From an uncultured Bacteroidales bacterium (lineage in GTDB: Bacteria; Bacteroidota; Bacteroidia; Bacteroidales; UBA932), in assembly GCA_900317845.1 (NCBI GenBank), contig ONII01000006.1, positions 15,172-79,171 of the forward strand: DNA of 64,000 nt, in the 5' to 3' direction. Both the position numbers and the translations under genes were made by a program. How positions within the stretch are numbered: the first letter of the stretch is position 1; the number at the start of each line of letters is the position of its first letter. Positions 1,811-27,566 of the stretch are shown here, in pieces. The notes beneath the pieces were generated by a model. That model was not told the DNA's origin and searched no databases. It saw only the letters and a list, made by a program, of their open reading frames with translations.

Positions 1811-3154
1811 ATGAAAACAACTGACATCATGGCACGCCTTCAGGCCAAGTATCCCTTGGAGAAGGAATATCTGCAGGCTGTGCAGGAAGTACTGGAATCC
1901 ATCGAAGAGGTGTACAACCAGCATCCTGAGTTTGAGAAAGCCAAGATTGTTGAACGGCTGGTGGAACCGGACCGCATCTTTACGTTCCGCGTTACCTGGA
2001 TCGACGACCGCGGGGAGGTACAGACCAACACCGGTTACCGCATCCAGTTCAACAGTGCCATCGGCCCTTATAAGGGCGGCCTCCGTTTCCATAAGGCCGT
2101 AACGCCTTCCATGCTCAAATTCCTGGGCTTTGAACAGACCTTCAAAAACGCCCTCACAACCCTTCCGATGGGCGGCGCCAAGGGCGGCTCTGACTTTGAC
2201 CCGGTGGGCAAATCCAACGACGAAATCATGCGTTTCTGCCAGGCTTTCATGCTGGAGCTGTGGAACTGCATCGGCCCGGATCAGGATATTCCTGCCGGCG
2301 ATGTTGGTGTAGGCGGTCGTGAAATCGGTTACCTGTATGGCATGTATAAAAAGCTGGCCCGCCAGTACAATACGGGCGTCCTCACCGGTAAGGGCGGCAC
2401 CTGGGGCGGCTCCATCCTTCGTCCGGAGGCCACCGGTTTCGGCGCCCTCTATTTCACCCAGCACCTGTTGAAGAAGGCCGGCAAGGATATCAAGGGCTGC
2501 AAGGTTGCACTCTCCGGCTTCGGCAATGTAGCCTGGGGCGCTGCTACTAAGGCCCGCGAACTGGGCGCCAAGGTGGTGGCCATCAGCGGCCCGGACGGCG
2601 TGTGCGAGATTCCGGATGGTATTACCCCGGAAATGATTGATTACATGCTGGTTATGCGTGCTTCCAACCGCAACAAAGTAGAGGATATGGCCACCAAGTT
2701 CCCCGGTCAGGCCAAGTTCACCGCCGGCAAGAAGAGCTGGAGCATCCCCGTGGACATTGCCCTGCCTTGCGCCTTCCAGAACGAACTCTCCGAGGAGGAT
2801 GCCAAGGAACTCAAGGCCAATGGCTGCTGGTGCTGCTGCGAGGTGTCCAACATGGGCTGCCAGCCCGGCGCCATCCACTTCTTCCAGCACAACGGTATCC
2901 TCTTCGCCCCCGGCAAGGCCGTGAATGCGGGCGGTGTGGCCACCAGCGGTCTGGAAATGACCCAGAACGCAGAGCACATCTCCTGGAGCGGGGAAGAAGT
3001 GGATGAGAAACTCCACTTCATCATGAAGTCCATCCACGAACAGTGCGTCAAGTACGGTACCCAGCCGGACGGCAGCGTGGACTATGTGAAGGGCGCCAAC
3101 ATCGCCGGCTTCATGAAAGTTGCCACCGCCATGCTGGAGCAAGGAACCATTTAG
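1811..3154 (+). CDS. gdhA: NADP-specific glutamate dehydrogenase
   Basis: GPYKGGLRFH, LPMGGAKGGSDFDP, DIPAGDVGVG, RPEATGFG, GFGNVA motifs. Confidence 0.96.
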   Translation: MKTTDIMARLQAKYPLEKEYLQAVQEVLESIEEVYNQHPEFEKAKIVERLVEPDRIFTFRVTWIDDRGEVQTNTGYRIQFNSAIGPYKGGLRFHKAVTPSMLKFLGFEQTFKNALTTLPMGGAKGGSDFDPVGKSNDEIMRFCQAFMLELWNCIGPDQDIPAGDVGVGGREIGYLYGMYKKLARQYNTGVLTGKGGTWGGSILRPEATGFGALYFTQHLLKKAGKDIKGCKVALSGFGNVAWGAATKARELGAKVVAISGPDGVCEIPDGITPEMIDYMLVMRASNRNKVEDMATKFPGQAKFTAGKKSWSIPVDIALPCAFQNELSEEDAKELKANGCWCCCEVSNMGCQPGAIHFFQHNGILFAPGKAVNAGGVATSGLEMTQNAEHISWSGEEVDEKLHFIMKSIHEQCVKYGTQPDGSVDYVKGANIAGFMKVATAMLEQGTI

Positions 3155-3173: not shown

Positions 3174-3206
3174 ACGGTGTCTCATGAAAATGGGGCACCG
3201 TTTTTT
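3174..3206 (+). terminator. Rho-independent terminator of gdhA
   Basis: ACGGTGTCTCAT-GAAA-ATGGGGCACCGT followed by a T run. Confidence 0.8.
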
Positions 3207-3277
3207 ATTGGTAATATGTAAGGTTATCTTACAATTAATTGCTATCTTTGCAAGCTAAACTGTATTAACCATTTTAC

Positions 3278-4876
3278 ATGAAAAAACTGGTAGTCGCGCT
3301 TTGTCTGGCATCGCTTTTCCTGGTTTCCTGCGAGCAGAAAACCAGCAAGGGGGAGCGCCTGCTGGAGAATTATGCGCTGGTAACGATTCCTGCTCCGGAC
3401 CTTTCAGGAATCACGGATAATGGAAAAGAGGTCCTGAATCTGTATCGCTTTGCGGCAGACCAGGCAGATGCCATCTATTGGGAGCAGAGCTTTGGCCCCA
3501 AGTCCACCTTCGACAATTTGCAGGATCCCGCAGAGAAGGCCTTTGTCGATGTGAACTATGGCCCGTGGAACCGTATCGACGACCAACCTTTCCTGGAAGG
3601 GTACGGCCCCAAGCCGGAAGGTTCCCGTTTTTACCCGGAAGACATGACGGATGCGGAGTTCGAGGCCCTGGCAGATCCTGCCAAGTATAGCCCGTACACA
3701 CTCATCCAGCGTGCCAATGACGGATCCCTGAAGGTGGTGTGGTATCACGACGCCTATCAGGCCCAGGTAAAAAAGATGGCCGATATCCTCCGCGCCGCCG
3801 CCGACATCACCATCAAGGAGAGTGTCCGTAACTATCTGCTCAAGAAGGCGGAAGCCCTTCTCTCGGACAACTATTACGAGAGCGAAAAAGCCTGGCTGGA
3901 GATGACGGACAGCAAGATGGACCTGGTGATTGGCCCCAACGAAACCATCGACGATGAACGGTACGGCCTCAAGGCCTCCTATGGCGCCTATGTGCTCCTG
4001 AAGAACCTGGACCGCACGGCCAGCCTCCAGTCCCTGACCTCCCGTCTGCCGGAACTGCAGGCCTCCCTGCCCGGCGACGCCATCTACCATTCTTTCGTTC
4101 CGGGTGCGGAGTCCAACATTTTCTCCTGCGATGTCATCTATTACGGCGGTTACACCAATGCCGGTTACAAGGTCATTGCCATTAACTTCCCGTACGATAC
4201 CCGCGTCCAGGAGGAATTCGGTACCCGTACCATCCTGTTCGACAATGTCATTCGCGAAAAGTTCAACCGCACCGTTTTTCCTGCCGGCATGCAGCTGTTC
4301 GAGGGCGCGGATTGCGCGCACCTGGACGCAAATGCGTTCTATTGGGGCATCGTCTTCCGCGAAGTGGCCAAGGGACTGGGCGTGAAAGAGACCATCACCG
4401 GAAAAGGCACGGTGACCGAGGCCCTGGGCAATGAGGCCCTCACCCTGGAAAAAGCCAAATCCAACGTACTGGGCGCTTACCTCTGTGCCCGGGAAGTGGA
4501 AGACCACCGTATAGACGCCCTCATCATGAAGCCGGATGTGCTGGCCACCTTTGTGGCCAATGTCATCCGCTCCACGCGCTTTGGCTTTGGTGATGCCACC
4601 GGACGCGCCAACCTGGTCATTTACAATTATTTGATGGAACAGGGGGCCATTACCCGCAAGGCTTCCGGCAAATATGGCATTGATTATGCCAAAACGGAGG
4701 AAGCCATTGCTTCCCTGGGCGCCCAAATCCTGAAACTCCAGGCCCTGGGAGACCGCGAGGCCGCTACGGAGTTCGTGAACAAGTATGCCGTTGTGGCTTC
4801 CACCATCAAGGCCGACATCGTGAACCTGGAACTGGAAAAGATACCTGTGGATATCCGTTTCACCTACGAAAAATAA
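3278..4876 (+). CDS. Lipoprotein of the DPP III/M49-like family with degenerate zinc site (probable pseudopeptidase)
   Basis: Lipobox LFLVSC; family motifs NYGPWNRID, GANFYP-like GSRFYPEDMT, DLVIGPNE, IAINFP; REVAK where HEXXH is expected and EKAKS where EExKA is expected; TATCTTTG box at 3243-3250. Confidence 0.8.
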   Translation: MKKLVVALCLASLFLVSCEQKTSKGERLLENYALVTIPAPDLSGITDNGKEVLNLYRFAADQADAIYWEQSFGPKSTFDNLQDPAEKAFVDVNYGPWNRIDDQPFLEGYGPKPEGSRFYPEDMTDAEFEALADPAKYSPYTLIQRANDGSLKVVWYHDAYQAQVKKMADILRAAADITIKESVRNYLLKKAEALLSDNYYESEKAWLEMTDSKMDLVIGPNETIDDERYGLKASYGAYVLLKNLDRTASLQSLTSRLPELQASLPGDAIYHSFVPGAESNIFSCDVIYYGGYTNAGYKVIAINFPYDTRVQEEFGTRTILFDNVIREKFNRTVFPAGMQLFEGADCAHLDANAFYWGIVFREVAKGLGVKETITGKGTVTEALGNEALTLEKAKSNVLGAYLCAREVEDHRIDALIMKPDVLATFVANVIRSTRFGFGDATGRANLVIYNYLMEQGAITRKASGKYGIDYAKTEEAIASLGAQILKLQALGDREAATEFVNKYAVVASTIKADIVNLELEKIPVDIRFTYEK

Positions 4877-4891
4877 ACGTATCAATATATT

Positions 4892-6331
4892 ATGAAGTTC
4901 AATGCTAAATATATGGTATTCTTGCCGCTGGTGCTGGCAATTACCATATTCCTGTGGGCCGTCCCGGTATCCTTCTTCGGGATTGACGCCCTGACGGTTG
5001 TGCAGCAGCGCGTGATTGCCCTGTTTGTCTTTGCAGCCTTGATGTGGATTTTCGAAATTATTCCCAACTGGTCCACGTCGCTTCTTGTGATTGTGATTTC
5101 GCTGCTCACCGTGTCCAACAAGGGTATCGGCCTGTTCTGTGATCCGCAGTACGGAACGCTCGTCCCTTACGGCCGTATCATGGCTTCCATGGCGGACCCC
5201 GTGGTAATGCTGTTCCTGGGCGGCTTTGTGCTGGCTATCATGGCCGAGAAATACGGGCTGGATGTTACCCTGGCCCGCGCCCTCCTAAAACTGTTCGGCA
5301 CCAAGCCGGAAATTGTGCTGCTGGGTTTCCTCATCATGATTTCCGTGTTCTCCATGTTCATGAGCAACACGGCTACCGCCGCCATGATGCTGGCCCTGCT
5401 CACTCCGGTGCTTTCCAAGCTTCCGGCCGACGATAAAGGCAAGATCGGCCTGGCGCTGAGTATCCCCGTGGCCGCCAACCTGGGCGGTATCGGCACGCCC
5501 ATCGGTACGCCGCCCAATGCTACTGCCAAGGGCGCCCTGGAGCAGGCCGGCATTGACGTGAGCTTTGGCGAGTGGTGCGTTCACATGATTCCCTACGTGA
5601 TTGTGATGATTGTGATTGCCTGGATTCTCCTTCGCGTCATGTTCCCGTTCAAGACCAAGAAACTGGTGCTGGAGATTCCCGAAAGCCAGCAGAAGAAAGA
5701 CTGGAAACTGTACGTGGTATGGATTACCTTCGTGGGCACCATCCTGCTGTGGGCAACCGAGCAAATCACCCACATCAACTCCAATATTGTGGCTCTTATC
5801 CCGCTGGGCGTGTTCACTGCAACCGGCCTGTTCGGCAAGGAAGAAATCAAGGAGATTAACTGGAATGTGCTGTGGCTGGTAGCCGGTGGCTTCTGCCTGG
5901 GTTACTGCCTGCAGGACACCGGTCTTGCCAAGGTGCTCATCCAGGCCATTCCGTTCGGCAGCATGAGCGTAGTGCTGGTGCTGGTGGTGGCCGGTCTGGT
6001 GTGCTACCTGCTGAGTAACTTCATCTCCAACTCTGCTACGGCAGCACTGCTCATCCCTATTCTGATTGTGGTTGCCAACGGCATGGCAGACCCTGAAGCT
6101 GCCAACAACGCGGAGTTCCTGGCTCTGGGTGGCACTTCCGCCATGATTATCTTCATCGCCGTGTGTGCTTCCATCGCCATGCTGTTCCCCATTTCCACCC
6201 CTCCGAATGCCATCGCTTCCGCTACCGGCATGGTGGATACCAAGGATATGACCCGCGTGGGCCTGGTGATTGGTCTTATCGGCTTTGTGCTGGGCTATTT
6301 CTGGTTAACTAAACTTTTCCCGTTTGCTTAA
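4892..6331 (+). CDS. SLC13/DASS family anion transporter
   Basis: Many hydrophobic helices; SMFMSNTAT, GTPIGTPPN, FISNSATAA and PISTPPNAI motifs. Confidence 0.92.
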   Translation: MKFNAKYMVFLPLVLAITIFLWAVPVSFFGIDALTVVQQRVIALFVFAALMWIFEIIPNWSTSLLVIVISLLTVSNKGIGLFCDPQYGTLVPYGRIMASMADPVVMLFLGGFVLAIMAEKYGLDVTLARALLKLFGTKPEIVLLGFLIMISVFSMFMSNTATAAMMLALLTPVLSKLPADDKGKIGLALSIPVAANLGGIGTPIGTPPNATAKGALEQAGIDVSFGEWCVHMIPYVIVMIVIAWILLRVMFPFKTKKLVLEIPESQQKKDWKLYVVWITFVGTILLWATEQITHINSNIVALIPLGVFTATGLFGKEEIKEINWNVLWLVAGGFCLGYCLQDTGLAKVLIQAIPFGSMSVVLVLVVAGLVCYLLSNFISNSATAALLIPILIVVANGMADPEAANNAEFLALGGTSAMIIFIAVCASIAMLFPISTPPNAIASATGMVDTKDMTRVGLVIGLIGFVLGYFWLTKLFPFA

Positions 6332-6332
6332 T

Positions 6333-6364
6333 TGTCATACCGAGGCCCCAAGCCGAGTGTATCT
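6333..6364 (+). repeat. Diverged REP-like palindrome TGTCATACCGAG...CCGAGTGTATCT
   Basis: Shares the TGTCAT..CGAG / CGAG...ATCT ends with 1069-1095; intergenic after a stop codon. Confidence 0.45.
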
Positions 6365-6379
6365 CAAACTAGAAACCCG

Positions 6380-7678
6380 ATGAAAAAATTATTCATTCTT
6401 ACATTGGCAGCGCTGCTTACCGGCAGCGCCGCTTTTGCGCAGGACGCTCCCGTAGAGGAAAAGCCCTCGCACTTCAAGCTGTACGGCTTTGTCCGTAACT
6501 ACCTGGCCGCCGACAGCCGTGCCGTTAAAGCCGGTACGGAGGACCTGTACTTTTACATGCCCCAGGACAAGGAGATGTCCAAGGGCTTCGACAGCAATGG
6601 CGAATTCAACTGGCGTTTTGTTTCCCTGACCACCCGCCTGGGCCTGGACGTGTCCGGTTACAAGTGGGGGAAGATGGGTATCGGCGCCAAAGTGGAGGCG
6701 GACTTCTACTACCTTAGCGGGTCCGTTCCCACCCTACGCCTGCGCCAGGCCTTTGTCAAGCTTAACTGGGACGACAGCCGCTGGGCCCTCACCCTGGGCC
6801 AGACCTGGCACCCCATGGCCGTGGATATGCCCCATATGAACAACCTGGAAACCGGCGCTCCCTTCAATCCCTTCAACCGCAGCCCGCAGGCCCGGGTAGA
6901 CCTTTCCCTGGGTGGTGGTTTCAGCCTCACCGCCAGCCTCCTGTATCTGAACCACTACCTGCCCACCGGCCCGGACGGCAAGAGCAAGGATTACTTCAAG
7001 TATGGCCTGCCGGAGTTCTACTTTGGCGCCAGCTTCCAGAATGAGCATTTCCTGGCCCGCGTGGGCTTGGATATGGTCAATCTTCGGCCCTACCGTTCGC
7101 ACGCCGACTGGCGTGTGCAGGGAGACAATCCTCCCACCATCCAGGTGAAGAGCCTCCTGACCACCGTTTCCCCGTTCGCCTTCTTCCAGTATACCAACGG
7201 AAAGTTCCAGCTGCGCGCCAAGAGCATCCTGGGCCAGGGCGGCGAGCACCTCAACATGCTCTCAGGCTATGGTATCCACAGCCTGAACAATGACGGCACC
7301 ATCACCTATACCCCTATGCAGGACTGGGCTTCTTTTGTGAGTGTCTCTTACGGCAAAAAGATCCAGGTAATGGGCATGCTGGGCTACATGAAGCAGCTGG
7401 GTACCACCCAGGACCTTCTGGATAATCAGTTGTGGCTCAATAATTCTGCCGATACCCGCATCCAGCAGGCCTTCCGCGCCACGCCCACCATCGCCTGGAA
7501 CCTGGGCAAGTTCACCGTGTCGCTGGAGTACAACCTCACCGCCGCTCAGTTCGGCAATACCAAGGCCGCCGGCTTTGCCGCCGACGCAGCCCGTAACGCC
7601 CGCGGCATGTTCGCTCCCGCCGATATGCACTGGATTGTGAACCACCGTCTCATCTGCATGACCAAGTTTAATTTCTAG
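6380..7678 (+). CDS. DcaP-like outer membrane porin
   Basis: Signal peptide, FKLYGFVR, TTRLGLDV, VEADF, LRLRQAFV, LGQTWHPM motifs, terminal Phe. Confidence 0.72.
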   Translation: MKKLFILTLAALLTGSAAFAQDAPVEEKPSHFKLYGFVRNYLAADSRAVKAGTEDLYFYMPQDKEMSKGFDSNGEFNWRFVSLTTRLGLDVSGYKWGKMGIGAKVEADFYYLSGSVPTLRLRQAFVKLNWDDSRWALTLGQTWHPMAVDMPHMNNLETGAPFNPFNRSPQARVDLSLGGGFSLTASLLYLNHYLPTGPDGKSKDYFKYGLPEFYFGASFQNEHFLARVGLDMVNLRPYRSHADWRVQGDNPPTIQVKSLLTTVSPFAFFQYTNGKFQLRAKSILGQGGEHLNMLSGYGIHSLNNDGTITYTPMQDWASFVSVSYGKKIQVMGMLGYMKQLGTTQDLLDNQLWLNNSADTRIQQAFRATPTIAWNLGKFTVSLEYNLTAAQFGNTKAAGFAADAARNARGMFAPADMHWIVNHRLICMTKFNF

Positions 7679-7698
7679 ACGATTGGAAATATGTTTTT

Positions 7699-7731
7699 AG
7701 GGACAGGATGATTGGCCTGTCCCTTTTTTTT
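7699..7731 (+). terminator. Rho-independent terminator after the porin gene
   Basis: AGGGACAGG-N8-CCTGTCCCT followed by T7. Confidence 0.82.
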
Positions 7732-7768
7732 GCTATATTTGTACAATGACTTTTAAAATCTAACCACT

Positions 7769-9136
7769 ATGGGCGCATTTCATGCATATGACATTCGCGG
7801 AATCTGGGGGAAAGACTGGAACCTGGAAGACGCATATAAGGTGGGATACTTCATCCCCGAACTCCTGAAGACCAACAAAGTGCTGGTAGGCCGCGACTGC
7901 CGCCTCTCCGGCAAGGATATCCACGACGCCCTCATCAAGGGCATTACGGATGCCGGCGCAGACGTAGACGACATTGGCTACAGCTCCACGCCGCTGGTGT
8001 ACTTTGGCACCGCCAACTACGGGTACAAGGCATCGGTCCAAATCACCGCTTCCCACAATCCGCCGGAGTACAACGGCATGAAAGTGAGCCGTGAGAACGC
8101 TCTTCCCGTGGGCCTGGACACCGGCTTGGGCCAAATCAAGCAGTGGATCGACGAAGGCCGTCCCACGCCGCCTGCCGCCAAGAAGGGTTCGGTGAAGGAG
8201 ATTGACATCAAGCCGGACTACATTGCCTTCCTCAAAAAGTTCAAAGGGGACTACTCCAACCTGAAGATCGCCTTCGACCTGTCCAACGGCATGGCCACCC
8301 TCTTTGCCAAGGAAATCTACAAGGGAGAAAATGCCACTTATCTCTTTGACGAGATGGACGGCAGCTTCCCCAACCATGAGCCCAACCCGCTGGTAGCCAA
8401 GAATGTAGAGCCGCTCAAGAAACTGGTGGGAGAAATCAAGGCCGACATCGGCGTCATCTATGACGGCGACGCAGACCGCGTCATGTTCGTGGACGACAAA
8501 GCCCGCTTTGTGGCTCCGGACCTGGTGATTGCCCTTATGGCCCGCTATTTCTGCGACGAACGGGGAGAGAAGAATCCGCGCGTGCTGCAGGAAATCCGTT
8601 CCAGCCTGGCCGTGGCGGAGGAACTCCGCGCCAAATACAATGCGGACGTTCACACCTGGCGTGTAGGGCGTGCTTTCGCTGCTCCCAAACTTCGTGAAAT
8701 TGACGGCCTGTGGGGCGGTGAACTGGCCGGCCACTATTATTTCAAGGACTTCTTCTACAGCGACAGCGGCATGCTTGCCAGCATCATCGTCCTCAGAATC
8801 GTGAGCGCCCTCAAGAAGCAGGGTATCAAGCTCTCGGAGGAGATGGACCGCCTTACCAGGTATGAGAACTCCGGCGAAATCAACTACAAGGTAGAGGACA
8901 AGAAGGGCGCCATGGATGCCGTAAAGGCCCATTTCGAAAGCAAGGAAACGCCCACCAAGGTGATGGACTTCGACGGATACCGTCTGGAATTCCCCGGCTG
9001 GTGGTTCAACATCCGTCCTTCCAATACGGAGCCTTACCTCCGTTTCATCTGTGAGGCTACCTCGCAGGAACTCCTGAAAGAAAAGATTGCCCAGGCGGAC
9101 GCCATCATTGTGGGTCAGTTCGGCGGCAAACGGTAG
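7769..9136 (+). CDS. Phosphomannomutase/phosphoglucomutase
   Basis: AYDIRG, TASHNP active-site Ser, DGDADR metal loop, GELAGH, RPSNTEP; TATATTTG box 7734-7741. Confidence 0.95.
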   Translation: MGAFHAYDIRGIWGKDWNLEDAYKVGYFIPELLKTNKVLVGRDCRLSGKDIHDALIKGITDAGADVDDIGYSSTPLVYFGTANYGYKASVQITASHNPPEYNGMKVSRENALPVGLDTGLGQIKQWIDEGRPTPPAAKKGSVKEIDIKPDYIAFLKKFKGDYSNLKIAFDLSNGMATLFAKEIYKGENATYLFDEMDGSFPNHEPNPLVAKNVEPLKKLVGEIKADIGVIYDGDADRVMFVDDKARFVAPDLVIALMARYFCDERGEKNPRVLQEIRSSLAVAEELRAKYNADVHTWRVGRAFAAPKLREIDGLWGGELAGHYYFKDFFYSDSGMLASIIVLRIVSALKKQGIKLSEEMDRLTRYENSGEINYKVEDKKGAMDAVKAHFESKETPTKVMDFDGYRLEFPGWWFNIRPSNTEPYLRFICEATSQELLKEKIAQADAIIVGQFGGKR

Positions 9137-9139
9137 CGG

Positions 9140-10186
9140 ATGAAGAAAAGAATTGCACTTTGTTTAGCGGCTGTGTGTGCCTGTGTGCCTGTTTTCGGGC
9201 AAGCACAGGACCACACGGCCGATTCCCTGCGTCATATCTTTGGCCGGCAGGAGGTGAAAACCAACACCCGCATGGGCACCAAGTATGCGGATACGCTGGA
9301 TACCGGGAATCCGGCTGTCAAGGTGGTGCTGTACGACAATGGCACCTATCGGTACGTAAAGGACCCCTCTGCCGTAGCCGATACCACCTTGTTCACGGAG
9401 TTCTGGGACGAGCGTGCAGTAAACCCGTATCATCAGTCCCCGGATCCTATTCCGGACCAGTTCTCCATTTGGGTGCTGGATTCCCTGGATACCTATTGCT
9501 GTCCCTACCAGACTACCGTTCGTTCCAAGTTCGGGTATCGCCACGGCCGCCGGCACCAGGGCGTAGATTTGCCCTATCCCACCGGTACGCCCGTTCCGGC
9601 CGCTTTTTCCGGCAAGGTCCGTATTTCGGACTATGTGGGAGGCTACGGCAACCTAGTGGTTATACGCCATGCCAGCGGCCTGGAAACCTTCTATGCCCAT
9701 CTGTCCAAGCGCAACGTAAACACGGGGGATTGGGTGAGCGCAGGCGATATCATCGGCCTTGGCGGCTCTACGGGGCGTTCCACCGGACCGCACCTGCATT
9801 TCGAAACCCGTTACCGGGGGGCGGCATTCGATCCTTCCTGGCTTATCGACTTTGAGACCGGCACGCTGCGGCATCGCCTGCTCAAAGTGCGCAGCTGGTA
9901 CTTCAATCCCAACCAGCGCTATGTCCAGAACGTGGACGACGAAGACGAGATTTTCCGTACGGATGAGGAAGACCGCATCCTGGCAGAGCAGAAAGCCAAG
10001 GAAGAGGCTGCTGCCCGCGCCCGCGCAGAGGCTGCTGCGCAGAAGTACCATACTATCCGCAGCGGCGACACCTTGTCCGGCATCGCCAAGAAGTATCATA
10101 CCACGGTAAGGCGCATTTGTGCGCTCAATCCCGGCCTTACGGAGAGGACGGTGCTCAAGCTGGGCCGGAAAATTCGCGTGCGCTAG
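9140..10186 (+). CDS. M23 family peptidase with C-terminal LysM domain
   Basis: HQGVD, YAHLS, STGPHLHFE motifs; HTIRSGDTLSGIAKKY LysM. Confidence 0.92.
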   Translation: MKKRIALCLAAVCACVPVFGQAQDHTADSLRHIFGRQEVKTNTRMGTKYADTLDTGNPAVKVVLYDNGTYRYVKDPSAVADTTLFTEFWDERAVNPYHQSPDPIPDQFSIWVLDSLDTYCCPYQTTVRSKFGYRHGRRHQGVDLPYPTGTPVPAAFSGKVRISDYVGGYGNLVVIRHASGLETFYAHLSKRNVNTGDWVSAGDIIGLGGSTGRSTGPHLHFETRYRGAAFDPSWLIDFETGTLRHRLLKVRSWYFNPNQRYVQNVDDEDEIFRTDEEDRILAEQKAKEEAAARARAEAAAQKYHTIRSGDTLSGIAKKYHTTVRRICALNPGLTERTVLKLGRKIRVR

Positions 10187-10741
10187 CTATTTGAGTTTGG
10201 AATTGTAGTGAGGATGAACTTTTCCTTTCTGTATGTTCTGCAGTTTGGAAGAGATCATCTTCTTGCGTATAGGGGCGGCATGGTCCGTGAACAGGTCCCC
10301 GTCCAGGTGCGACAACTCGTGCTGGATCATGCGGGCGGCAAAGTTGTCAAACTCCTCCGTTACCTGCTGTAAATCCTCGTTGTAGTACCGTACGGTCATC
10401 TTTTTGGGACGGACTACGTCGCAGTAGACGCCGGGAATGCTCAGGCAGCCTTCCGAATAAGTGACTTTTTCCTCGCTCTCTTCCAGAATTTCCGGGTTGA
10501 TGAGCGTGCGGCGGAACCCCTTCAGGTAATCATAGGTGTCCGACACTACGTCGCCGTCCACAATGACCACACGGAGGCTCACGCCAATCTGGGGAGCGGC
10601 CAGGCCGCAGCCGTCCGCCACCACCAGGGTGTCCTTGAGGTCTTGCACCAGGGCTTGGATGCCCGCTTTGTCACTGAGGTCTGCCGGAGCAGCCGTTTTG
10701 CGCAGGACTTCTGCGCCGTACAGGTAGATGGGTTTTATCAT
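10187..10741 (-). CDS. def: Peptide deformylase
   Basis: GCGLAAPQIG, EGCLS, QHELSHLDG motifs. Confidence 0.96.
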   Translation of the reverse strand: MIKPIYLYGAEVLRKTAAPADLSDKAGIQALVQDLKDTLVVADGCGLAAPQIGVSLRVVIVDGDVVSDTYDYLKGFRRTLINPEILEESEEKVTYSEGCLSIPGVYCDVVRPKKMTVRYYNEDLQQVTEEFDNFAARMIQHELSHLDGDLFTDHAAPIRKKMISSKLQNIQKGKVHPHYNSKLK

Positions 10742-11223
10742 TTTTTTCTTCTTGTCTTGTTCATGGACAAACTGTCGGGTACGGCCGAAGGGTCTACGCT
10801 CAGGGTGCCGCCGTTTTCCCGGTCCAGGTAACTTTGCAGGATGATGGCGGCCGATATCTTGTCCACTTCCTTTTTGTCCCGGCGCTGGGAGGCTTTCATG
10901 CCGCCGTCTATCATGATGCGGTGGGCCAGCACGGATGTAAACCGTTCATCTTCAAGGGTGACGGGCGTGTCCGGGAATGCTTTTTCCAGTTGTTTCAGGA
11001 AGGCTTGCACGTCCCCAAGGGCCTCCGAAGGGCTGCCGTTCATGTTTACCGGGTAGCCCACTACAAAGCGAAGGATTCTCTCGCGGATGGCGTAATTTTT
11101 GATATAATCTATTAACTTTGTAGAATCAACTGTTTCCAGGGCAGATGCAAAGATGCCAAGAGGATCACTGACCGCCAGGCCGGTTCTCCTTTTTCCGTAG
11201 TCTATGCCAAGAATTCTGTCCAT
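10738..11223 (-). CDS. ruvX: Holliday junction resolvase-like/pre-16S rRNA nuclease YqgF (RuvX)
   Basis: ILGIDYGKRRTGLAVSD, DERFTS, VDKISAAIILQSYL. Confidence 0.94.
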   Translation of the reverse strand: MDRILGIDYGKRRTGLAVSDPLGIFASALETVDSTKLIDYIKNYAIRERILRFVVGYPVNMNGSPSEALGDVQAFLKQLEKAFPDTPVTLEDERFTSVLAHRIMIDGGMKASQRRDKKEVDKISAAIILQSYLDRENGGTLSVDPSAVPDSLSMNKTRRKK

Positions 11224-11250
11224 TTACAGTTTGCAAATATACGAATAATT

Positions 11251-12093
11251 ATGGATAAAGCAGATAAGAAGGCCAGTAACTTGCGTCTCACCCTGTTGGA
11301 TGCCACCTCCCATGAGCGGCTCTGGAGTCTCCGGTTTTCCCGGACCCACTTCATCATTGCCAATATCTCCCTGGTTGTGGTGGTGTTCCTGGCGATTTTC
11401 TGCCTTATCGCGTTTACGCCCATCCGCACCTTCATTCCCGGTTACCCCAACGCCCAGTCACGCCGGCAGGCCGTCCAGAATGCGCAGCGTATAGACTCGC
11501 TGCAAACGCGCATTCTGCAGTGGGAACTGTATACGGAAAATCTCAGGCGCGTGGTGGCGGGGGAGGACCCCATTCGTCTGGACACCCTTATGCTGGGCCG
11601 GGAAGGCTCGCGGGTGGTGTCGGATGCCCGCTACCTGGCCATCCGGGATTCCCTGCTTCGGGCCGATGTCGTCCAGGAAGAGCAATTTGGCCTGTCGTCT
11701 GCCCGGCGGCGGAACCTGCCCATCGAGGCAATGGCCTTCTACACGCCCGTAAAGGGGGTTGTTTCCAAAGGCTTCGACCGCAGTCTGCATCCCTGGGTGG
11801 ATGTTACGGCGCCCGTGGGCAGCCCGGTGATGGCGGTCCTGGATGGGAGTGTGGTATATACCTCCTGGTCGCAGGACAGTGGCTACACCCTGGTGCTCCA
11901 GCACGGAAGCGACCTTCTGTCCATTTACAAGAACAACCAAAAGCTGCTTCACAAAACCGGAGATGTCGTAAAAGCCGGCACGCCGGTGGCCATGCTGGCA
12001 TCGTCCACCTCGCTTACAAAAGGGGACCACTTGCATTTTGAGCTGTGGTACAAGGGCGTGGCTGTGGATCCGGCACAGTACATAAAATTTTAA
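11251..12093 (+). CDS. M23 family peptidase-domain membrane protein
   Basis: N-terminal TM segment, coiled coil, C-terminal M23 domain ending HLHFELW; typical position upstream of dxr. Confidence 0.85.
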   Translation: MDKADKKASNLRLTLLDATSHERLWSLRFSRTHFIIANISLVVVVFLAIFCLIAFTPIRTFIPGYPNAQSRRQAVQNAQRIDSLQTRILQWELYTENLRRVVAGEDPIRLDTLMLGREGSRVVSDARYLAIRDSLLRADVVQEEQFGLSSARRRNLPIEAMAFYTPVKGVVSKGFDRSLHPWVDVTAPVGSPVMAVLDGSVVYTSWSQDSGYTLVLQHGSDLLSIYKNNQKLLHKTGDVVKAGTPVAMLASSTSLTKGDHLHFELWYKGVAVDPAQYIKF

Positions 12094-14569: not shown

Positions 14570-15577
14570 ATGAAACTCCATTTTACCCGAATCCTCGCGT
14601 TTGCCCTTTGCGTGTTGGCGTTTGCAGGATGTAAAAGCGGCAATAAAAAAGCCTTGCTCCCCAACGTGAGCGGAAAAGCCGGCGAAGTGCTGGTGGTGAT
14701 TGAGCGCGAACAGTGGGAAGGCAACCTGGGCGTGGCCATCCGCGAAGCGCTGGCCATGGATACCCCGTACCTGGCACAGCGGGAGCCCCTTTTCGCGGTC
14801 TCCAACGTGCCTCCGGGCAGTTTTACCAATATGTTCAAGATGCACCGCAACTTGCTGGTGGTGAACATAAACCCGCAGAATGCCACCAATGGCGTCCTGT
14901 ATAAGAACAATGTGTGGGCGCAGCCCCAGGCCGTTGTGCAGCTCAATGCGGCCGATGCAGAACAGGCCCTGGAACTGTTCCGGGAAGCCGGCGTAAAGCC
15001 GGCGGAGTTCTTTGAGCAGTCGGAGCGCGACCGTGTCATCGCCAACGCCAAGCTCTACGAGGAACGGGCCCTGCAGCCGCCCATGGAAAAGGTGACGGGC
15101 GGCATCATCCATTTCCCGTCGGGCTACCGCTGCCGCATGGCAACGGACGACTTTGTGTGGATGGCCGACGAAAAACAGTACGTCCAGCAGTATGTGATGG
15201 CATACAAATATCCCGTTGGCGGTGACGATGTCTTCTCGCTGGAAAACATCATCCAGAAGCGCAACGAGGTAATGAAAGCCAACGTGCCGGGCATGTTTGA
15301 GGGCTCGTACATGACCACCTCTACGGCACAGGAACCCACTACGCGCTCCCTGCGTTATCGGGGACGCGCCTTTATGGAAACCCGCGGCTTCTGGGAGGTG
15401 CACGGAGACTTTATGGGCGGTCCTTTTGTGTCGCACTCCTTCTACAGCCCGGACGGAAATGATATCATTGTCCTGGAGGCGTTTGTCTTTGCTCCCCGCT
15501 ACGACAAGCGCCAGTACCTGCGTCAGGTAGAGTCCCTGCTGTACTCTTTTGAGTGGAAAACCGATGATAATCAATAA
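14570..15577 (+). CDS. DUF4837-like lipoprotein
   Basis: Lipobox AFAGC, GKAGEVLVV, MGGPFVSH, FVFAPRYDKR motifs resemble this Bacteroidetes family. Confidence 0.7.
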   Translation: MKLHFTRILAFALCVLAFAGCKSGNKKALLPNVSGKAGEVLVVIEREQWEGNLGVAIREALAMDTPYLAQREPLFAVSNVPPGSFTNMFKMHRNLLVVNINPQNATNGVLYKNNVWAQPQAVVQLNAADAEQALELFREAGVKPAEFFEQSERDRVIANAKLYEERALQPPMEKVTGGIIHFPSGYRCRMATDDFVWMADEKQYVQQYVMAYKYPVGGDDVFSLENIIQKRNEVMKANVPGMFEGSYMTTSTAQEPTTRSLRYRGRAFMETRGFWEVHGDFMGGPFVSHSFYSPDGNDIIVLEAFVFAPRYDKRQYLRQVESLLYSFEWKTDDNQ

Positions 15578-15580
15578 ATT

Positions 15581-17800
15581 ATGAAAAAATTTTTGTATGT
15601 AATGGCCTCCCTGGCGCTGCTGTTTTCTGGCTGCACCCGGGAACTGGAAACCCGTCTGAGTGATGTGGAGACCCGCCTGGCCAAAGTGGAAGACCAGGTG
15701 AAGGAACTCAATTCCCAGGTGAGTCTCATTCAAAACCTAATTAATGGAAAATACTTCATCCAGAGTGCTACTGAGCTCCCGGACGGCTCCGGCTATAAGC
15801 TGGTCCTGGTGGACAAGGACGGAAACTCGTTGGAGAAAACCGTACTAAACGGAAAGGACGGGGCGGATGGCGAGGACGGCGTGAGCCCTACTGTTGGTGT
15901 CAAGAAGGATACCGATGGCAACTACTACTGGACACTCAATGGCGAGTGGCTGCTGGTGGGCGGAGAGAAAGTCCGCGCCAACGGGCAGGACGGAGCTAGT
16001 GGAAAAGACGGCAAGGATGCCCCTCAGACGCAGTTCAAGGTGGAAGACGGCAAATGGTACGTAAAGGTGGGCGATGGCGCCTGGACCTACGTAGGAGAGG
16101 CCGCTACACTCATTCAGGGGCCCATCGCTTCCATTGATGCTTCCGGGGCCGATGTCGTGGTGATAACCCTCACGGACAATACCGTGCTGGAGCTCCCCAA
16201 GGCTGCGGTTGCCGTCAAGCTCCAGATTCTGGTAGATGATGCGGCATTCCAAAACATGACGGCCGGACAAACCCAAAGTGCTCCCTATGAAGTGAAAGCC
16301 CCTGCCGGCGTTACCTATACGCTGGATTCCTATGAGCCCGAGAATTGGAAAGTGACCCTTTCGGACCCCAAGGACAACAAGGGCATTGTGACCATCAGCG
16401 TTCCTGCTGCCGGAAAATCGGCCAAAGTACTCCTGATTGCTAATGGCAGCGACGGAAGCAGCTATGCCAAGGTCCTGCACATCGAGGTGGAAGGCAGCGG
16501 GGAAGAGGCCCCGGTGGTGCTGCAGGAAATGGTGGACGCTACGGCGGGTAGTATCGACCTTCCTGCCGGCGCCACGGATGTGGCTTTTACGGCAACCTGG
16601 ATTGCCTTGTCCGGCAATCAGCTCCTCATTGCCACCAACGATACCTATGATGCCCGCATGGCTACGGTGTCGTTCAAGGTAGGGGAGAAGAGCTATGTCC
16701 TTACGGTCATGCAGGCGCAGAAGGATGCGATTGTCCTTACGGAAAATGCGTTGCAGGTAAGCGCGGCGGGGGAGGAAATCCCGTTTGTGATTAAGGCCAA
16801 TGTAACCGTGGAGGCGGCCTCCAGTGTGGAATGGATTACGGTAGCGCCCGCCACCAAAGGCCTGGAAGACAAACCGTTCACGGTGAAGGTGGCGGCCAAT
16901 GAGGCTACGTCGCCCCGTGAGGGCACCATTACCTTCTCCTCGGGAGAACTCCAGCAGGTAGTGACGGTGACGCAGGAAGGCACGGGGCCTGTTCTCCCTC
17001 CTGTAGCCGGCGTCTTTGAACTGCTGACGGATGCATCGGAACTGCAGGCCGGGGACCAGCTCCTGCTTGTGAATCAGGCAAAAGATTATGCCATGGGCGC
17101 TCAGAGTGGTAATTTCCGCAGCCGCGTTTCCATCACGATTGTGGACGATACTGTTTCCGATCCCGGAGAAGGGGTGGTTGTGATTACCCTGGAGGGCGAG
17201 GAGGGCGCCTGGAACCTGAAGGTGTCGGATGGTTATCTGGCGGCTCAGTCTTCCGCCAAGAATTATTTGGTTACGGTTGATTCCGTAACCGATTATGCCA
17301 CCTGGAGCATTGCGCTGGATGGCCAGGGACTTGCTACGCTCACGGCCGCTAACGGTGGCCGCAATACCCTTCTGTATAACTCGCAGAGTGGCAATGAAAG
17401 GTTCAGCTGCTATGCCAATACGGGCAACACAACCAAAGAGGTGCTGATTTTCCACAAGGCCGGTACCCCCGCAACGCCCGTAACGCAGTACGATGCCCTG
17501 GGCCTGTACCTGGGCAAGCAGGAGCGCGTTTACCAGGCCGGTATAGACCAGTATGTCCGCTCTTATGACGGCAGCGCCCTGCAGTTTGTGCTCCTGGAGC
17601 CCCAAGGCAAGGAGCAGGTGAAACTGAGCGGCTTTACCACGGCGCTACAGCCCGGAGATGCCGTCACGGTTTCTGTGGACTGGAAGAAAGACAAAACCCA
17701 GGTGCTGGAGAAAGCCTATCCCATGACCGTCCTCAAAGACCAGGAGGGCAAATTGTGGATCGGTGATGCCAAGGGGAGAGGTGTAATTATTAGAAAGTAA
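15581..17800 (+). CDS. Multidomain surface lipoprotein (DUF4988-like N-terminus with GKDG repeats, BACON-like domains, probable beta-trefoil-like domain)
   Basis: Lipobox LFSGC, coiled coil, GKDGADGEDG, YYWTLNGEWL; SSVEWITV...ANEATSPREGTITF...VTVTQ BACON pattern. Confidence 0.68.
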   Translation: MKKFLYVMASLALLFSGCTRELETRLSDVETRLAKVEDQVKELNSQVSLIQNLINGKYFIQSATELPDGSGYKLVLVDKDGNSLEKTVLNGKDGADGEDGVSPTVGVKKDTDGNYYWTLNGEWLLVGGEKVRANGQDGASGKDGKDAPQTQFKVEDGKWYVKVGDGAWTYVGEAATLIQGPIASIDASGADVVVITLTDNTVLELPKAAVAVKLQILVDDAAFQNMTAGQTQSAPYEVKAPAGVTYTLDSYEPENWKVTLSDPKDNKGIVTISVPAAGKSAKVLLIANGSDGSSYAKVLHIEVEGSGEEAPVVLQEMVDATAGSIDLPAGATDVAFTATWIALSGNQLLIATNDTYDARMATVSFKVGEKSYVLTVMQAQKDAIVLTENALQVSAAGEEIPFVIKANVTVEAASSVEWITVAPATKGLEDKPFTVKVAANEATSPREGTITFSSGELQQVVTVTQEGTGPVLPPVAGVFELLTDASELQAGDQLLLVNQAKDYAMGAQSGNFRSRVSITIVDDTVSDPGEGVVVITLEGEEGAWNLKVSDGYLAAQSSAKNYLVTVDSVTDYATWSIALDGQGLATLTAANGGRNTLLYNSQSGNERFSCYANTGNTTKEVLIFHKAGTPATPVTQYDALGLYLGKQERVYQAGIDQYVRSYDGSALQFVLLEPQGKEQVKLSGFTTALQPGDAVTVSVDWKKDKTQVLEKAYPMTVLKDQEGKLWIGDAKGRGVIIRK

Positions 17801-25880: not shown

Positions 25881-27566
25881 ATGAAAGATTTGTTTTTCGG
25901 ATACGGCGTCGCCCATAGCATCATGCTGCTTGCATTTGTTATCGGCATTGGACTTTTTCTGGGCCGTTTCAAGGTAAAAGGCATCTCCCTGGGCTCCACC
26001 TGGATCCTGTTTCTGGGCATCCTGATGGGGCATCTGGGCTTCCAGATGGACCTGGACATGCTGCATTTTGTCAAGGAGTTCGGCCTTATCCTCTTTGTGT
26101 TTTCCATCGGTCTTCAGGTGGGCCCCGGTTTTTTTCATTCGTTCAGAAGCGGCGGCGTAAAGATGAACCTGCTGGCCGTGATGAACATTCTGCTGGCCGT
26201 TGCGGCCACTTATGCCATATCGGCCCTCAGCGGTGAAAGCCTTTCTACGATGGTGGGCGTGATGTCCGGCGCCGTCACCAATACGCCCGGCCTCGGTGCC
26301 GCCCAGCAAACCTTTATAGACACCGCGGTCGCCGGAGGCACTAGCGCCCTGGCCGCCGGCGAGGTCTCCGGGCACTTGGCATCGGCCTACGCCGTAGCCT
26401 ATCCCATCGGCGTTATTGGCGTTATTGGCGTCATCCTGCTGTTCAAGGCTATTTTCAGGATCGATCCTAAAAAGGAACTGGCAGAGCTGAAAGCGCAGGA
26501 CGATGAGGTGGAAAAAGCCCGCCGCATGCATGTGATGGTGGAGAATCCGGCCATCTTCGGACGCAAGCTCTCCGGCATCCTGCAGGAATTTGGCGGCGAT
26601 TTTGTGGTATCCCGCATCATGAAGGGCGACGAAATCCTGTTCCCGCAGCCGGATACCATCCTGAACGAAGGCGACAAACTGCTCATTGTGACCTCGCAGA
26701 ACGAGGTGGACCGAATCCGCATCCTCTTTGGTGAGGAAGTGCCTATGCATCAGGCCGATTGGCAGGTGAAAGACCACAACATGGTCACCCGCCGCATTGT
26801 GGTTACCAATGGCAAACTCACCGGGAAAAAGCTCAAGGAACTGGGCTTCCGCAGCGCTTACGGCGTAAGTGTGACGCGTGTTATCCGTGCCGGCGTGGAG
26901 CTCGTCGCCAGCCCCAACCTGTACATCCAGGTGGGTGACGGCCTCATGTGCGTGGGAACGCTCAAAAACATCGAAAACCTGGCCAAGAAAGTGGGTAACT
27001 CCAACGATGCCCTCAACAAACCCAACCTGGTGCCCATTTTCCTGGGCATTGTGGTGGGTATCATCTTTGGCTCCCTTCCCATTCGCTTCCCGGGCATCCC
27101 GCAGGCCATCAAGCTGGGCCTGGCCGGCGGCCCGCTCATCATTGCCATCCTGCTGGGCCACTTCGGCCCCAAATATAAAATCACCACGTATACCACCACC
27201 AGTGCCAATCTGATGCTGCGGGAAATCGGCATTGCCATGTTCCTGGCAGCCGTGGGCATTGGCGCCGGTGCCGACTTCTGGAAGTCCATTGTGGGCGGTG
27301 GTTACTGGTGGATCCTGTACGGCGCCATCATCACCATCGTGCCTCTGTGCATCACCTTCATCGTGTCCCGTGCGTTCTTCCACCTCAACTTCTACCAGAT
27401 TTGCGGCCTTATCAGCGGCTCCTGCACCAATCCGCCGGTGCTGGCCTTCGCCCAGGGCATGTACGGCAGCGACTATACGTCCGTGAACTATGCCACGGTG
27501 TACCCGCTGTCCATGTTTATGCGCGTGCTGGTAGCACAGCTGCTCATCCTGGTTGCAATGGCGTAG
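25881..27566 (+). CDS. AspT/YidE/YbjL family transporter with TrkA-C domains
   Basis: LFVFSIGLQVGPGFF, GAVTNTPGLGAA, LGLAGGPL, SCTNPPVL, YATVYP. Confidence 0.92.
   Translation: MKDLFFGYGVAHSIMLLAFVIGIGLFLGRFKVKGISLGSTWILFLGILMGHLGFQMDLDMLHFVKEFGLILFVFSIGLQVGPGFFHSFRSGGVKMNLLAVMNILLAVAATYAISALSGESLSTMVGVMSGAVTNTPGLGAAQQTFIDTAVAGGTSALAAGEVSGHLASAYAVAYPIGVIGVIGVILLFKAIFRIDPKKELAELKAQDDEVEKARRMHVMVENPAIFGRKLSGILQEFGGDFVVSRIMKGDEILFPQPDTILNEGDKLLIVTSQNEVDRIRILFGEEVPMHQADWQVKDHNMVTRRIVVTNGKLTGKKLKELGFRSAYGVSVTRVIRAGVELVASPNLYIQVGDGLMCVGTLKNIENLAKKVGNSNDALNKPNLVPIFLGIVVGIIFGSLPIRFPGIPQAIKLGLAGGPLIIAILLGHFGPKYKITTYTTTSANLMLREIGIAMFLAAVGIGAGADFWKSIVGGGYWWILYGAIITIVPLCITFIVSRAFFHLNFYQICGLISGSCTNPPVLAFAQGMYGSDYTSVNYATVYPLSMFMRVLVAQLLILVAMA

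Follow-up and report, generated by a model that had tools for sequence, protein, structure and literature searches.

A zinc-less DPP III-fold lipoprotein encoded beside anion carriers in uncultured Bacteroidales, a candidate partner of DASS and Asp-Al_Ex transporters

Why should a lipoprotein with the fold of a metallopeptidase and none of its zinc ligands be encoded in one block with an anion carrier and a porin? The question is raised by a 64,000-nucleotide stretch of DNA from an uncultured Bacteroidales bacterium (GenBank assembly GCA_900317845.1, contig ONII01000006.1, positions 15,172 to 79,171), hereafter the window, in which three consecutive genes encode such a lipoprotein (gene 1), a carrier of the DASS family (gene 2) and a porin (gene 3; Table 1). 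A sequence-only reading of the window had described the three products as a lipoprotein with a cationic dead active site, a DASS carrier and a DcaP-like porin, and all three descriptions were borne out by alignments and structural models. In related genomes the genes for such lipoproteins are coupled to anion carriers in a near-obligate manner and are naturally fused to them in some. The reading that we favour, with slightly better than even confidence, is that the operon imports a carboxylate-type anion, most likely a C4/C5 dicarboxylate, independently of TonB and ATP, the pseudopeptidase serving as a ligand-capturing subunit of the carrier.

Over its entire length gene 1 can be aligned with two short bacterial DPP III enzymes of known structure, both of peptidase family M49, from Caldithrix abyssi (6EOM, E 1e-72 in phmmer) and Corallococcus (5ZUM, E 3e-67), and it scores 21.5 bits against Pfam PF03571, for which the cut-off is 21. 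Its AlphaFold model is confident (pLDDT 90.5) and superposes in Foldseek on 5ZUM with a TM score of 0.88 and on 6EOM with 0.85, indicating that the two-lobe clamp is intact. By homology and by fold gene 1 is thus an M49 protein, sharing with both enzymes full-length homology, the two-lobe fold and a lipoprotein-like N-terminus, but it differs from them by replacements at every zinc ligand and at the catalytic histidine. Where M49 enzymes have HExxH or HExxGH (HEISH in 6EOM, HELMH in 5ZUM), gene 1 has REVAK at residues 361–365, and in place of EExR(K)AE(D) (EECKAD and EEAKAD, respectively) it has EKAKSN at residues 391–396. In 6EOM, zinc is held by the two HEISH histidines and by the second of the two glutamates in EECKAD (PMC5805324), so that all three ligands are changed in gene 1, from H, H and E to R361, K365 and K392. 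A second M49 homologue of about 680 residues, the canonical DPP III length, is encoded elsewhere in the same genome (G000:C22:236613-237659), outside the window.

The history of this replacement was read from 114 short-M49 genes (111 distinct sequences), which came from 41 related genomes and a scan of species representatives and were retrieved together with at most 10 kb of flanking DNA on a side; the sampled relatives are metagenome-assembled genomes (MAGs) of rumen and gut Bacteroidales, 'Candidatus Cryptobacteroides' among them. Genes were classed by their ligand triad, that is, by the residues at the two histidine and one glutamate zinc-ligand positions: HHE (His-type) forms are zinc-competent, RHE forms have only the first histidine changed to arginine, RHD, RHK and RHR forms have the first histidine and the glutamate replaced, and in RKK and RQK forms all three are replaced. 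When an IQ-TREE phylogeny is rooted on the HHE proteins of other genera, HHE genes make up a paraphyletic base, all genes with arginine at the first histidine position (Arg-variants) form one clade (SH-aLRT 100), and the RHD and RKK forms are clades nested inside it (support 100 each), a nesting that gives the order HHE to RHE, then to RHD, RHK or RHR, and finally to RKK or RQK.

Further residues of the active site changed in the Arg clade. The histidine of the EAHG motif (position 441), the transition-state histidine, is L or T, and the asparagine of the LPND motif (position 306), which binds the N-terminus, is F or Y; both are invariant in His-type proteins, as are D292, D243, E236 and D396, which are missing from the Arg clade as well. 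At 24 class-specific positions the net charge is −3.2 in His-type proteins, +0.7 in R..H forms and +1.5 in R..K forms, with a whole-protein net charge of about −18 to −21 throughout the classes; the replacement of the zinc site, the transition-state histidine and several acidic cleft residues leaves a locally cationic pocket. Ratios of nonsynonymous to synonymous substitution (dN/dS) of close pairs are 0.03–0.14 (0.11–0.14 for RKK forms versus 0.03 for the His-type pair), far below 1, which marks a maintained protein and not a decaying gene. The lipoprotein has therefore lost its catalytic apparatus, kept the clamp fold and remained under purifying selection.

A maintained protein of this kind might still be an enzyme, using metal-independent chemistry to free a transportable anion from a conjugate (an acidic peptide, an N-acyl or a gamma-glutamyl compound) beside the carrier that imports it. 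Sixty scaffold and cleft positions, E362 and E391 among them, are conserved to at least 95% in all three classes, early RHE forms retain two of the three zinc ligands, and the family descends from peptidases of the periplasm, some of them fused to an M28 or M29 peptidase; at one RKK locus (L068) the RKK gene is preceded, at a distance of 393 bp, by an M28 peptidase gene (7941–9608). The first zinc histidine, however, is gone in every member of the clade, together with His 441 and Asn 306, and later lineages drop the remaining ligands singly (RHD, RHK, RKK) with no obvious substitute site, a stepwise loss which fits the decay of a disused site. We consider it unlikely that the Arg-variants are enzymes of a new chemistry.

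The reading of the lipoprotein as a carrier subunit draws on its gene neighbourhoods. Counting a carrier gene as linked when it lies no more than 400 bp from the M49-like gene, we found among 86 distinct Arg-variant genes 37 that adjoin a DASS gene of type A (65–97% identical to the window carrier), 21 that adjoin DASS type B, a second paralogue (50–54% identical), and 20 that adjoin a carrier of the aspartate:alanine-exchanger family (Asp-Al_Ex, PF06826); two with full flanks have no carrier (L085, L099) and six are cut by the contig end. An anion carrier thus adjoins 78 of the 80 Arg-variants with readable flanks (58 DASS, 20 Asp-Al_Ex), and no carrier adjoins any of the 19 His-type genes whose flanks are complete. 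Window-type lipoproteins are encoded beside anion carriers or fused to them, whereas their zinc-competent short DPP III relatives are not. Whether the REVAK variant co-occurs with DASS had been proposed as a check by the sequence-only reading, and it does: a DASS gene adjoins each of the 24 R..K/Q variants whose flanks can be read. Since the basal Arg lineages are linked to Asp-Al_Ex, the association with carriers dates from about the change of histidine to arginine.

Adjacency could also be inherited synteny without any functional link, and the Arg-variants do all descend from one ancestor within one group of rumen and gut Bacteroidales. Against this, three carrier types and nine combinations of gene order and orientation occur, including RKK > DASS-B > RHE triplets and one divergent pair, both partners are under purifying selection, and stop-to-start distances at several Asp-Al_Ex loci are 1–4 nt. 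In three MAGs (L076, L118 and L121), furthermore, DASS and the M49-like protein are fused in frame as one open reading frame (ORF) of 1001–1026 residues, which in L118 spans 8504–11509 and in which a DASS part ending in ...LFPF is followed by a linker of about 20 residues and by an M49-like domain that starts at the equivalent of residue ~30 and has neither signal peptide nor lipobox. In the DASS family, VcINDY and the SLC13 proteins have their C-terminus in the periplasm, so the fusion puts the M49-like domain where the lipoprotein would be. We regard bare synteny as highly improbable. As in binding-protein-dependent carriers, the partner is found beside the carrier (78 of 80 loci) or fused to it (three fusions). 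A search for Asp-Al_Ex-M49 fusions yielded only the short stop-start gaps, and the long short-M49 representatives, considered as further carrier fusions, have M28, M29 or an SLH-like module as partner instead; P0251 is an M28-M49 fusion protein. At the L068 locus, an F420-0:gamma-glutamyl-ligase-family gene (14746–15945) abuts the far end of the RKK > DASS-B > RHE triplet.

As judged from the loci examined, only the Arg clade has the carrier link. About 40 of the best 150 representatives of 50%-identity clusters lack the first histidine, with at least five independent losses on the tree. In other short-M49 lipoproteins this residue is replaced by Y, W, F, N or Q (P0252–P0304; loci L149–L228), and one large Y/W clade of zinc-less forms comprises 17 representatives. 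Eighty metagenome loci fetched with a Y/W-clade query, in which the motif state of each protein was not checked, showed no DASS or Asp-Al_Ex neighbours; the genes found there encode ProRS, HDOD, MscS, S46 peptidase and M49 paralogues, and an extension of the carrier link to other zinc-less short-M49 clades was dropped for that reason. A scan for the coding pattern of the Arg motif covered 401 genomes, sampled evenly across 148 families of the order, and its only genuine Arg-variants were those of the window genome, of one congener and of a genome from a different GTDB family, where the gene lies 39 bp after an Asp-Al_Ex gene.

The carrier of the window belongs to DASS (TIGR00785, 243.3 bits against a cut-off of 198.6) and matches VcINDY with an E-value of 4e-36. 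Its hairpin-tip motifs SNT and SNS align with both SNT motifs of VcINDY, SNS being a conservative variant of the second, so that the two motifs typical of DASS (TC 2.A.47 / SLC13) are present, and both PPNA motifs of VcINDY are kept. Gene 2 thereby resembles VcINDY and the bacterial DASS dicarboxylate symporters, and differs from them in its SNS tip, its dedicated porin and its pseudopeptidase partner. Sulfate and phosphate were weighed as substrates, as the phosphate carrier PHO90 is nominally the best match in the PDB, yet PHO90 has SNV and SHT at the hairpin tips where the motifs of VcINDY agree; judged by these motifs, either anion would be less likely than dicarboxylates. Window-type DASS occurs in 19 of 24 congeners and in none of the 16 other Bacteroidales families sampled.

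A C4/C5 dicarboxylate or an acidic amino acid is the probable substrate, as suggested by four features: tip motifs like those of VcINDY, the pairing with Asp-Al_Ex in relatives, the similarity of the porin to DcaP, and gdhA as a neighbour. Citrate synthase (PF00285) was not detected in the 97.75%-complete genome, which has one Iso_dh-family gene, and this would leave room, speculatively, for the import of 2-oxoglutarate. The genome's only Asp-Al_Ex (PF06826) gene also lies in the window (25881–27527, + strand); it has no M49-like neighbour, and its product is 58% identical to the carriers that relatives encode next to an M49-like gene.

The model of gene 3 is a 16-strand barrel (pLDDT 82) with DcaP of Acinetobacter baumannii as its best structural match in the PDB (6EUS; Foldseek E 4e-16, TM 0.76). 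DcaP is an anion channel associated with dicarboxylate uptake, and it carries a long N-terminal coiled coil. Gene 3 differs from it in having 16% sequence identity, no match to PF19577 (DcaP) or any other Pfam family (two of 26 relatives match PF19577 weakly, E 0.001), and no coiled coil in the model, where only the signal-peptide helix precedes strand 1. Between the window and L031 (G010:C131), which come from near-identical genomes, the porins have a dS of 1.31 and 65% amino-acid identity, against a dS of 0.07–0.15 for the gdhA, M49-like and PMM genes and 0.47 for the DASS gene; this pattern resembles a recombinational exchange of a surface-exposed protein, to which phage or host pressure may have contributed. 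Two tandem porin paralogues, 34–41% identical to the window porin, follow DASS in place of a single porin at L035, L037, L078-L082, L089 and L125.

The window trio is one of several architectures. A porin lies downstream of DASS-A at 30 of the 44 loci with readable flanks, and gdhA lies upstream, directly or across the M49-like gene, at 24 of the 44; no porin is present where the lipoprotein pairs with DASS-B or Asp-Al_Ex. Basal lineages of the DASS tree have gdhA > DASS > porin or DASS > porin and no M49-like gene (L141-L147), which makes the porin-carrier pair the older module and the pseudopeptidase a later accessory; the M49-like gene has also been lost secondarily inside associated DASS clades (L138-L140). 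The proposal of the sequence-only reading that the three genes form a three-part uptake system accordingly stands in part: the trio of the window does sit in one block resembling a transcription unit, but it is not a fixed unit, since DASS and porin occur without the lipoprotein, and the lipoprotein occurs with DASS-B or Asp-Al_Ex and no porin.

An accessory of this kind need not bind a substrate. It could be a structural or regulatory subunit that stabilises, gates or localises the carrier or tethers it to the porin, in the manner of SLC3 heavy chains or collectrin/ACE2. Fusion and tight linkage demonstrate a physical partnership and are silent on ligand binding, the carriers appear to function without the lipoprotein in relatives, and at L118 and L121 the porin gene follows the fused gene by 78 bp. 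A pure scaffold, however, would not require the class-specific changes, which cluster in what was once the substrate cleft and reverse the charge there, and the partner carriers come from two families that have only anionic substrates in common. We rate such a subunit as rather improbable. The precedents for it are the heteromeric carriers of eukaryotes, SLC7 with the SLC3 heavy chains and SLC6A19 with ACE2 or collectrin, in which an ectodomain of dead-enzyme or peptidase fold is the ancillary subunit of a secondary transporter; they differ in that folds and carriers are unrelated and in that the role of the ectodomain is trafficking and stability, not ligand capture.

The ligand-capturing subunit that we favour can be set out as a sequence of steps. 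A DcaP-like porin would pass the anion through the outer membrane. The lipid-anchored pseudopeptidase would dock on the carrier from the periplasmic side, its clamp would close on the anion through R361, K365 and K392 and hand it over, and the Na+-coupled elevator carrier of the DASS family would then move it across the inner membrane. We infer ligand binding, ligand identity and docking on the carrier from this combination of features; in all characterised DPP III enzymes, lobe closure is driven by ligand binding (PMC5805324). In its wider form, that a dead DPP III clamp lined with Arg and Lys at the zinc site is a periplasmic receptor for elevator-type DASS and Asp-Al_Ex carriers, and in the window, with the DcaP-like porin, part of an envelope-spanning route independent of ATP and TonB, the proposal is a tentative one, to which we give a little less than even weight.

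Before 2025, a binding protein was known only for TRAP and TTT carriers; the TAXI-GltS system then showed that elevator carriers outside these families can recruit one, which raised the question whether elevator carriers at large do so, and its authors call for further classes of binding-protein-dependent carriers (PMC12344293). Like TRAP, TTT and TAXI-GltS, the system of the window couples an extracytoplasmic protein, lipid-anchored or fused, genetically to an elevator-type Na+/anion carrier; gene fusions occur, and the membrane components of TRAP share the DASS fold. In the binding proteins of TRAP systems it is an arginine that holds the carboxylate (PMC4646407), and by analogy an arginine of the window-type partner may contact one too. 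The differences are that the partner here is a dead metallopeptidase of DPP III fold and not a periplasmic-binding protein of the DctP, TAXI or Bug type, that its binding of a solute is putative, and that the carriers are DASS and Asp-Al_Ex. To our knowledge neither family is known to use a partner protein, and both are treated as stand-alone transporters.

Several observations weigh against a ligand-capturing subunit. Carriers also occur without the lipoprotein (L138-L147, and the Asp-Al_Ex gene of the window at 25881–27527), which makes the lipoprotein an accessory and not a requirement. The other zinc-less short-M49 clades, of Y/W types, show no carrier linkage. Because the Arg-variants stem from one ancestor, the contrast between His-type and Arg-type genes is a single evolutionary event, and independent support comes only from the repeated rearrangements and the fusion. 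Finally, the invariance of E362, the former catalytic base, and of E391 could indicate residual chemistry.

Within the window, one promoter and one terminator had been proposed to enclose three co-oriented genes with gaps of 15 and 48 bp, a layout which motif, hairpin and ORF coordinates bear out (Table 1). The -7 box of Bacteroidota type lies 28 nt 5' of the gene 1 start codon; the window has more copies of this motif than expected (39 against 21), and the next copy on the + strand is at 7734, before the following gene, with none inside the unit. Gene 3 was assigned the start ATG 6380 and not TTG 6332, the closest database relative being 432 residues long. As far as such signals go, the layout of one -7 box, short gaps and one terminator fits a single transcription unit, and upstream gdhA has a terminator-like hairpin of its own. 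The M49-like lipoprotein, the DASS carrier and the porin are each the single copy of their family in the genome. Before gdhA, positions 3–1696 of the window hold the C-terminal part of a BamA-like Omp85 gene, cut by the window start, and a gene for an OmpH/Skp chaperone.

Table 1. Coordinates in the window of the three-gene unit, its signals and the upstream gdhA gene
Feature	Position	Strand	Evidence or remark
gdhA (NAD(P)-glutamate dehydrogenase)	1811..3154	+	NF010633, 798 bits; conserved upstream neighbour, outside the operon
Terminator-like hairpin of gdhA	3174..3201	+	12-bp stem and T-run
Bacteroidota -7 promoter box TAtcTTTG	3243..3250	+	motif scan
Gene 1, M49/DPP III-fold lipoprotein without zinc site (pseudopeptidase), 532 aa	3278..4876	+	6EOM, E 1e-72; model
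Lipobox cysteine C18 (LVSC)	3329..3331	+	conserved to at least 95% in all three classes
REVAK replacing the HExxH zinc motif (R361, E362, K365)	4358..4372	+	alignment
EKAKSN replacing EExKAD (K392, former Glu zinc ligand; N396, former final Asp)	4448..4465	+	
Gene 2, DASS (SLC13-type) carrier, predicted Na+-coupled anion carrier, 479 aa	4892..6331	+	TIGR00785, 243 bits; VcINDY, E 4e-36
Gene 3, DcaP-like 16-strand outer-membrane porin, 432 aa including signal peptide	6380..7678	+	model, Foldseek
Intrinsic-terminator-like hairpin ending the unit	7699..7724	+	9-bp GC-rich stem and T-run

Full-text literature searches on M49 pseudopeptidases and on zinc-motif-variant DPP III lipoproteins in Bacteroidetes returned nothing relevant. 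If the proposal is true, the system would be a further independent case of a partner-dependent elevator carrier after TRAP, TTT and TAXI-GltS, and what would be new in it is a pseudoenzyme partner of unrelated fold, together with carriers from families for which no partner is known. The natural single-chain fusions of DASS and pseudopeptidase are ready-made material for structural work. The family itself is a dated, stepwise record of the passage from a metallopeptidase to a non-catalytic protein, from HHE through RHE and RHD/RHK to RKK. Its hosts are abundant uncultured Bacteroidales of rumen and gut, so that the substrate bears on the supply of carbon and nitrogen skeletons to these bacteria, a role consistent with gdhA as a conserved neighbour and with the failure to detect a citrate synthase.

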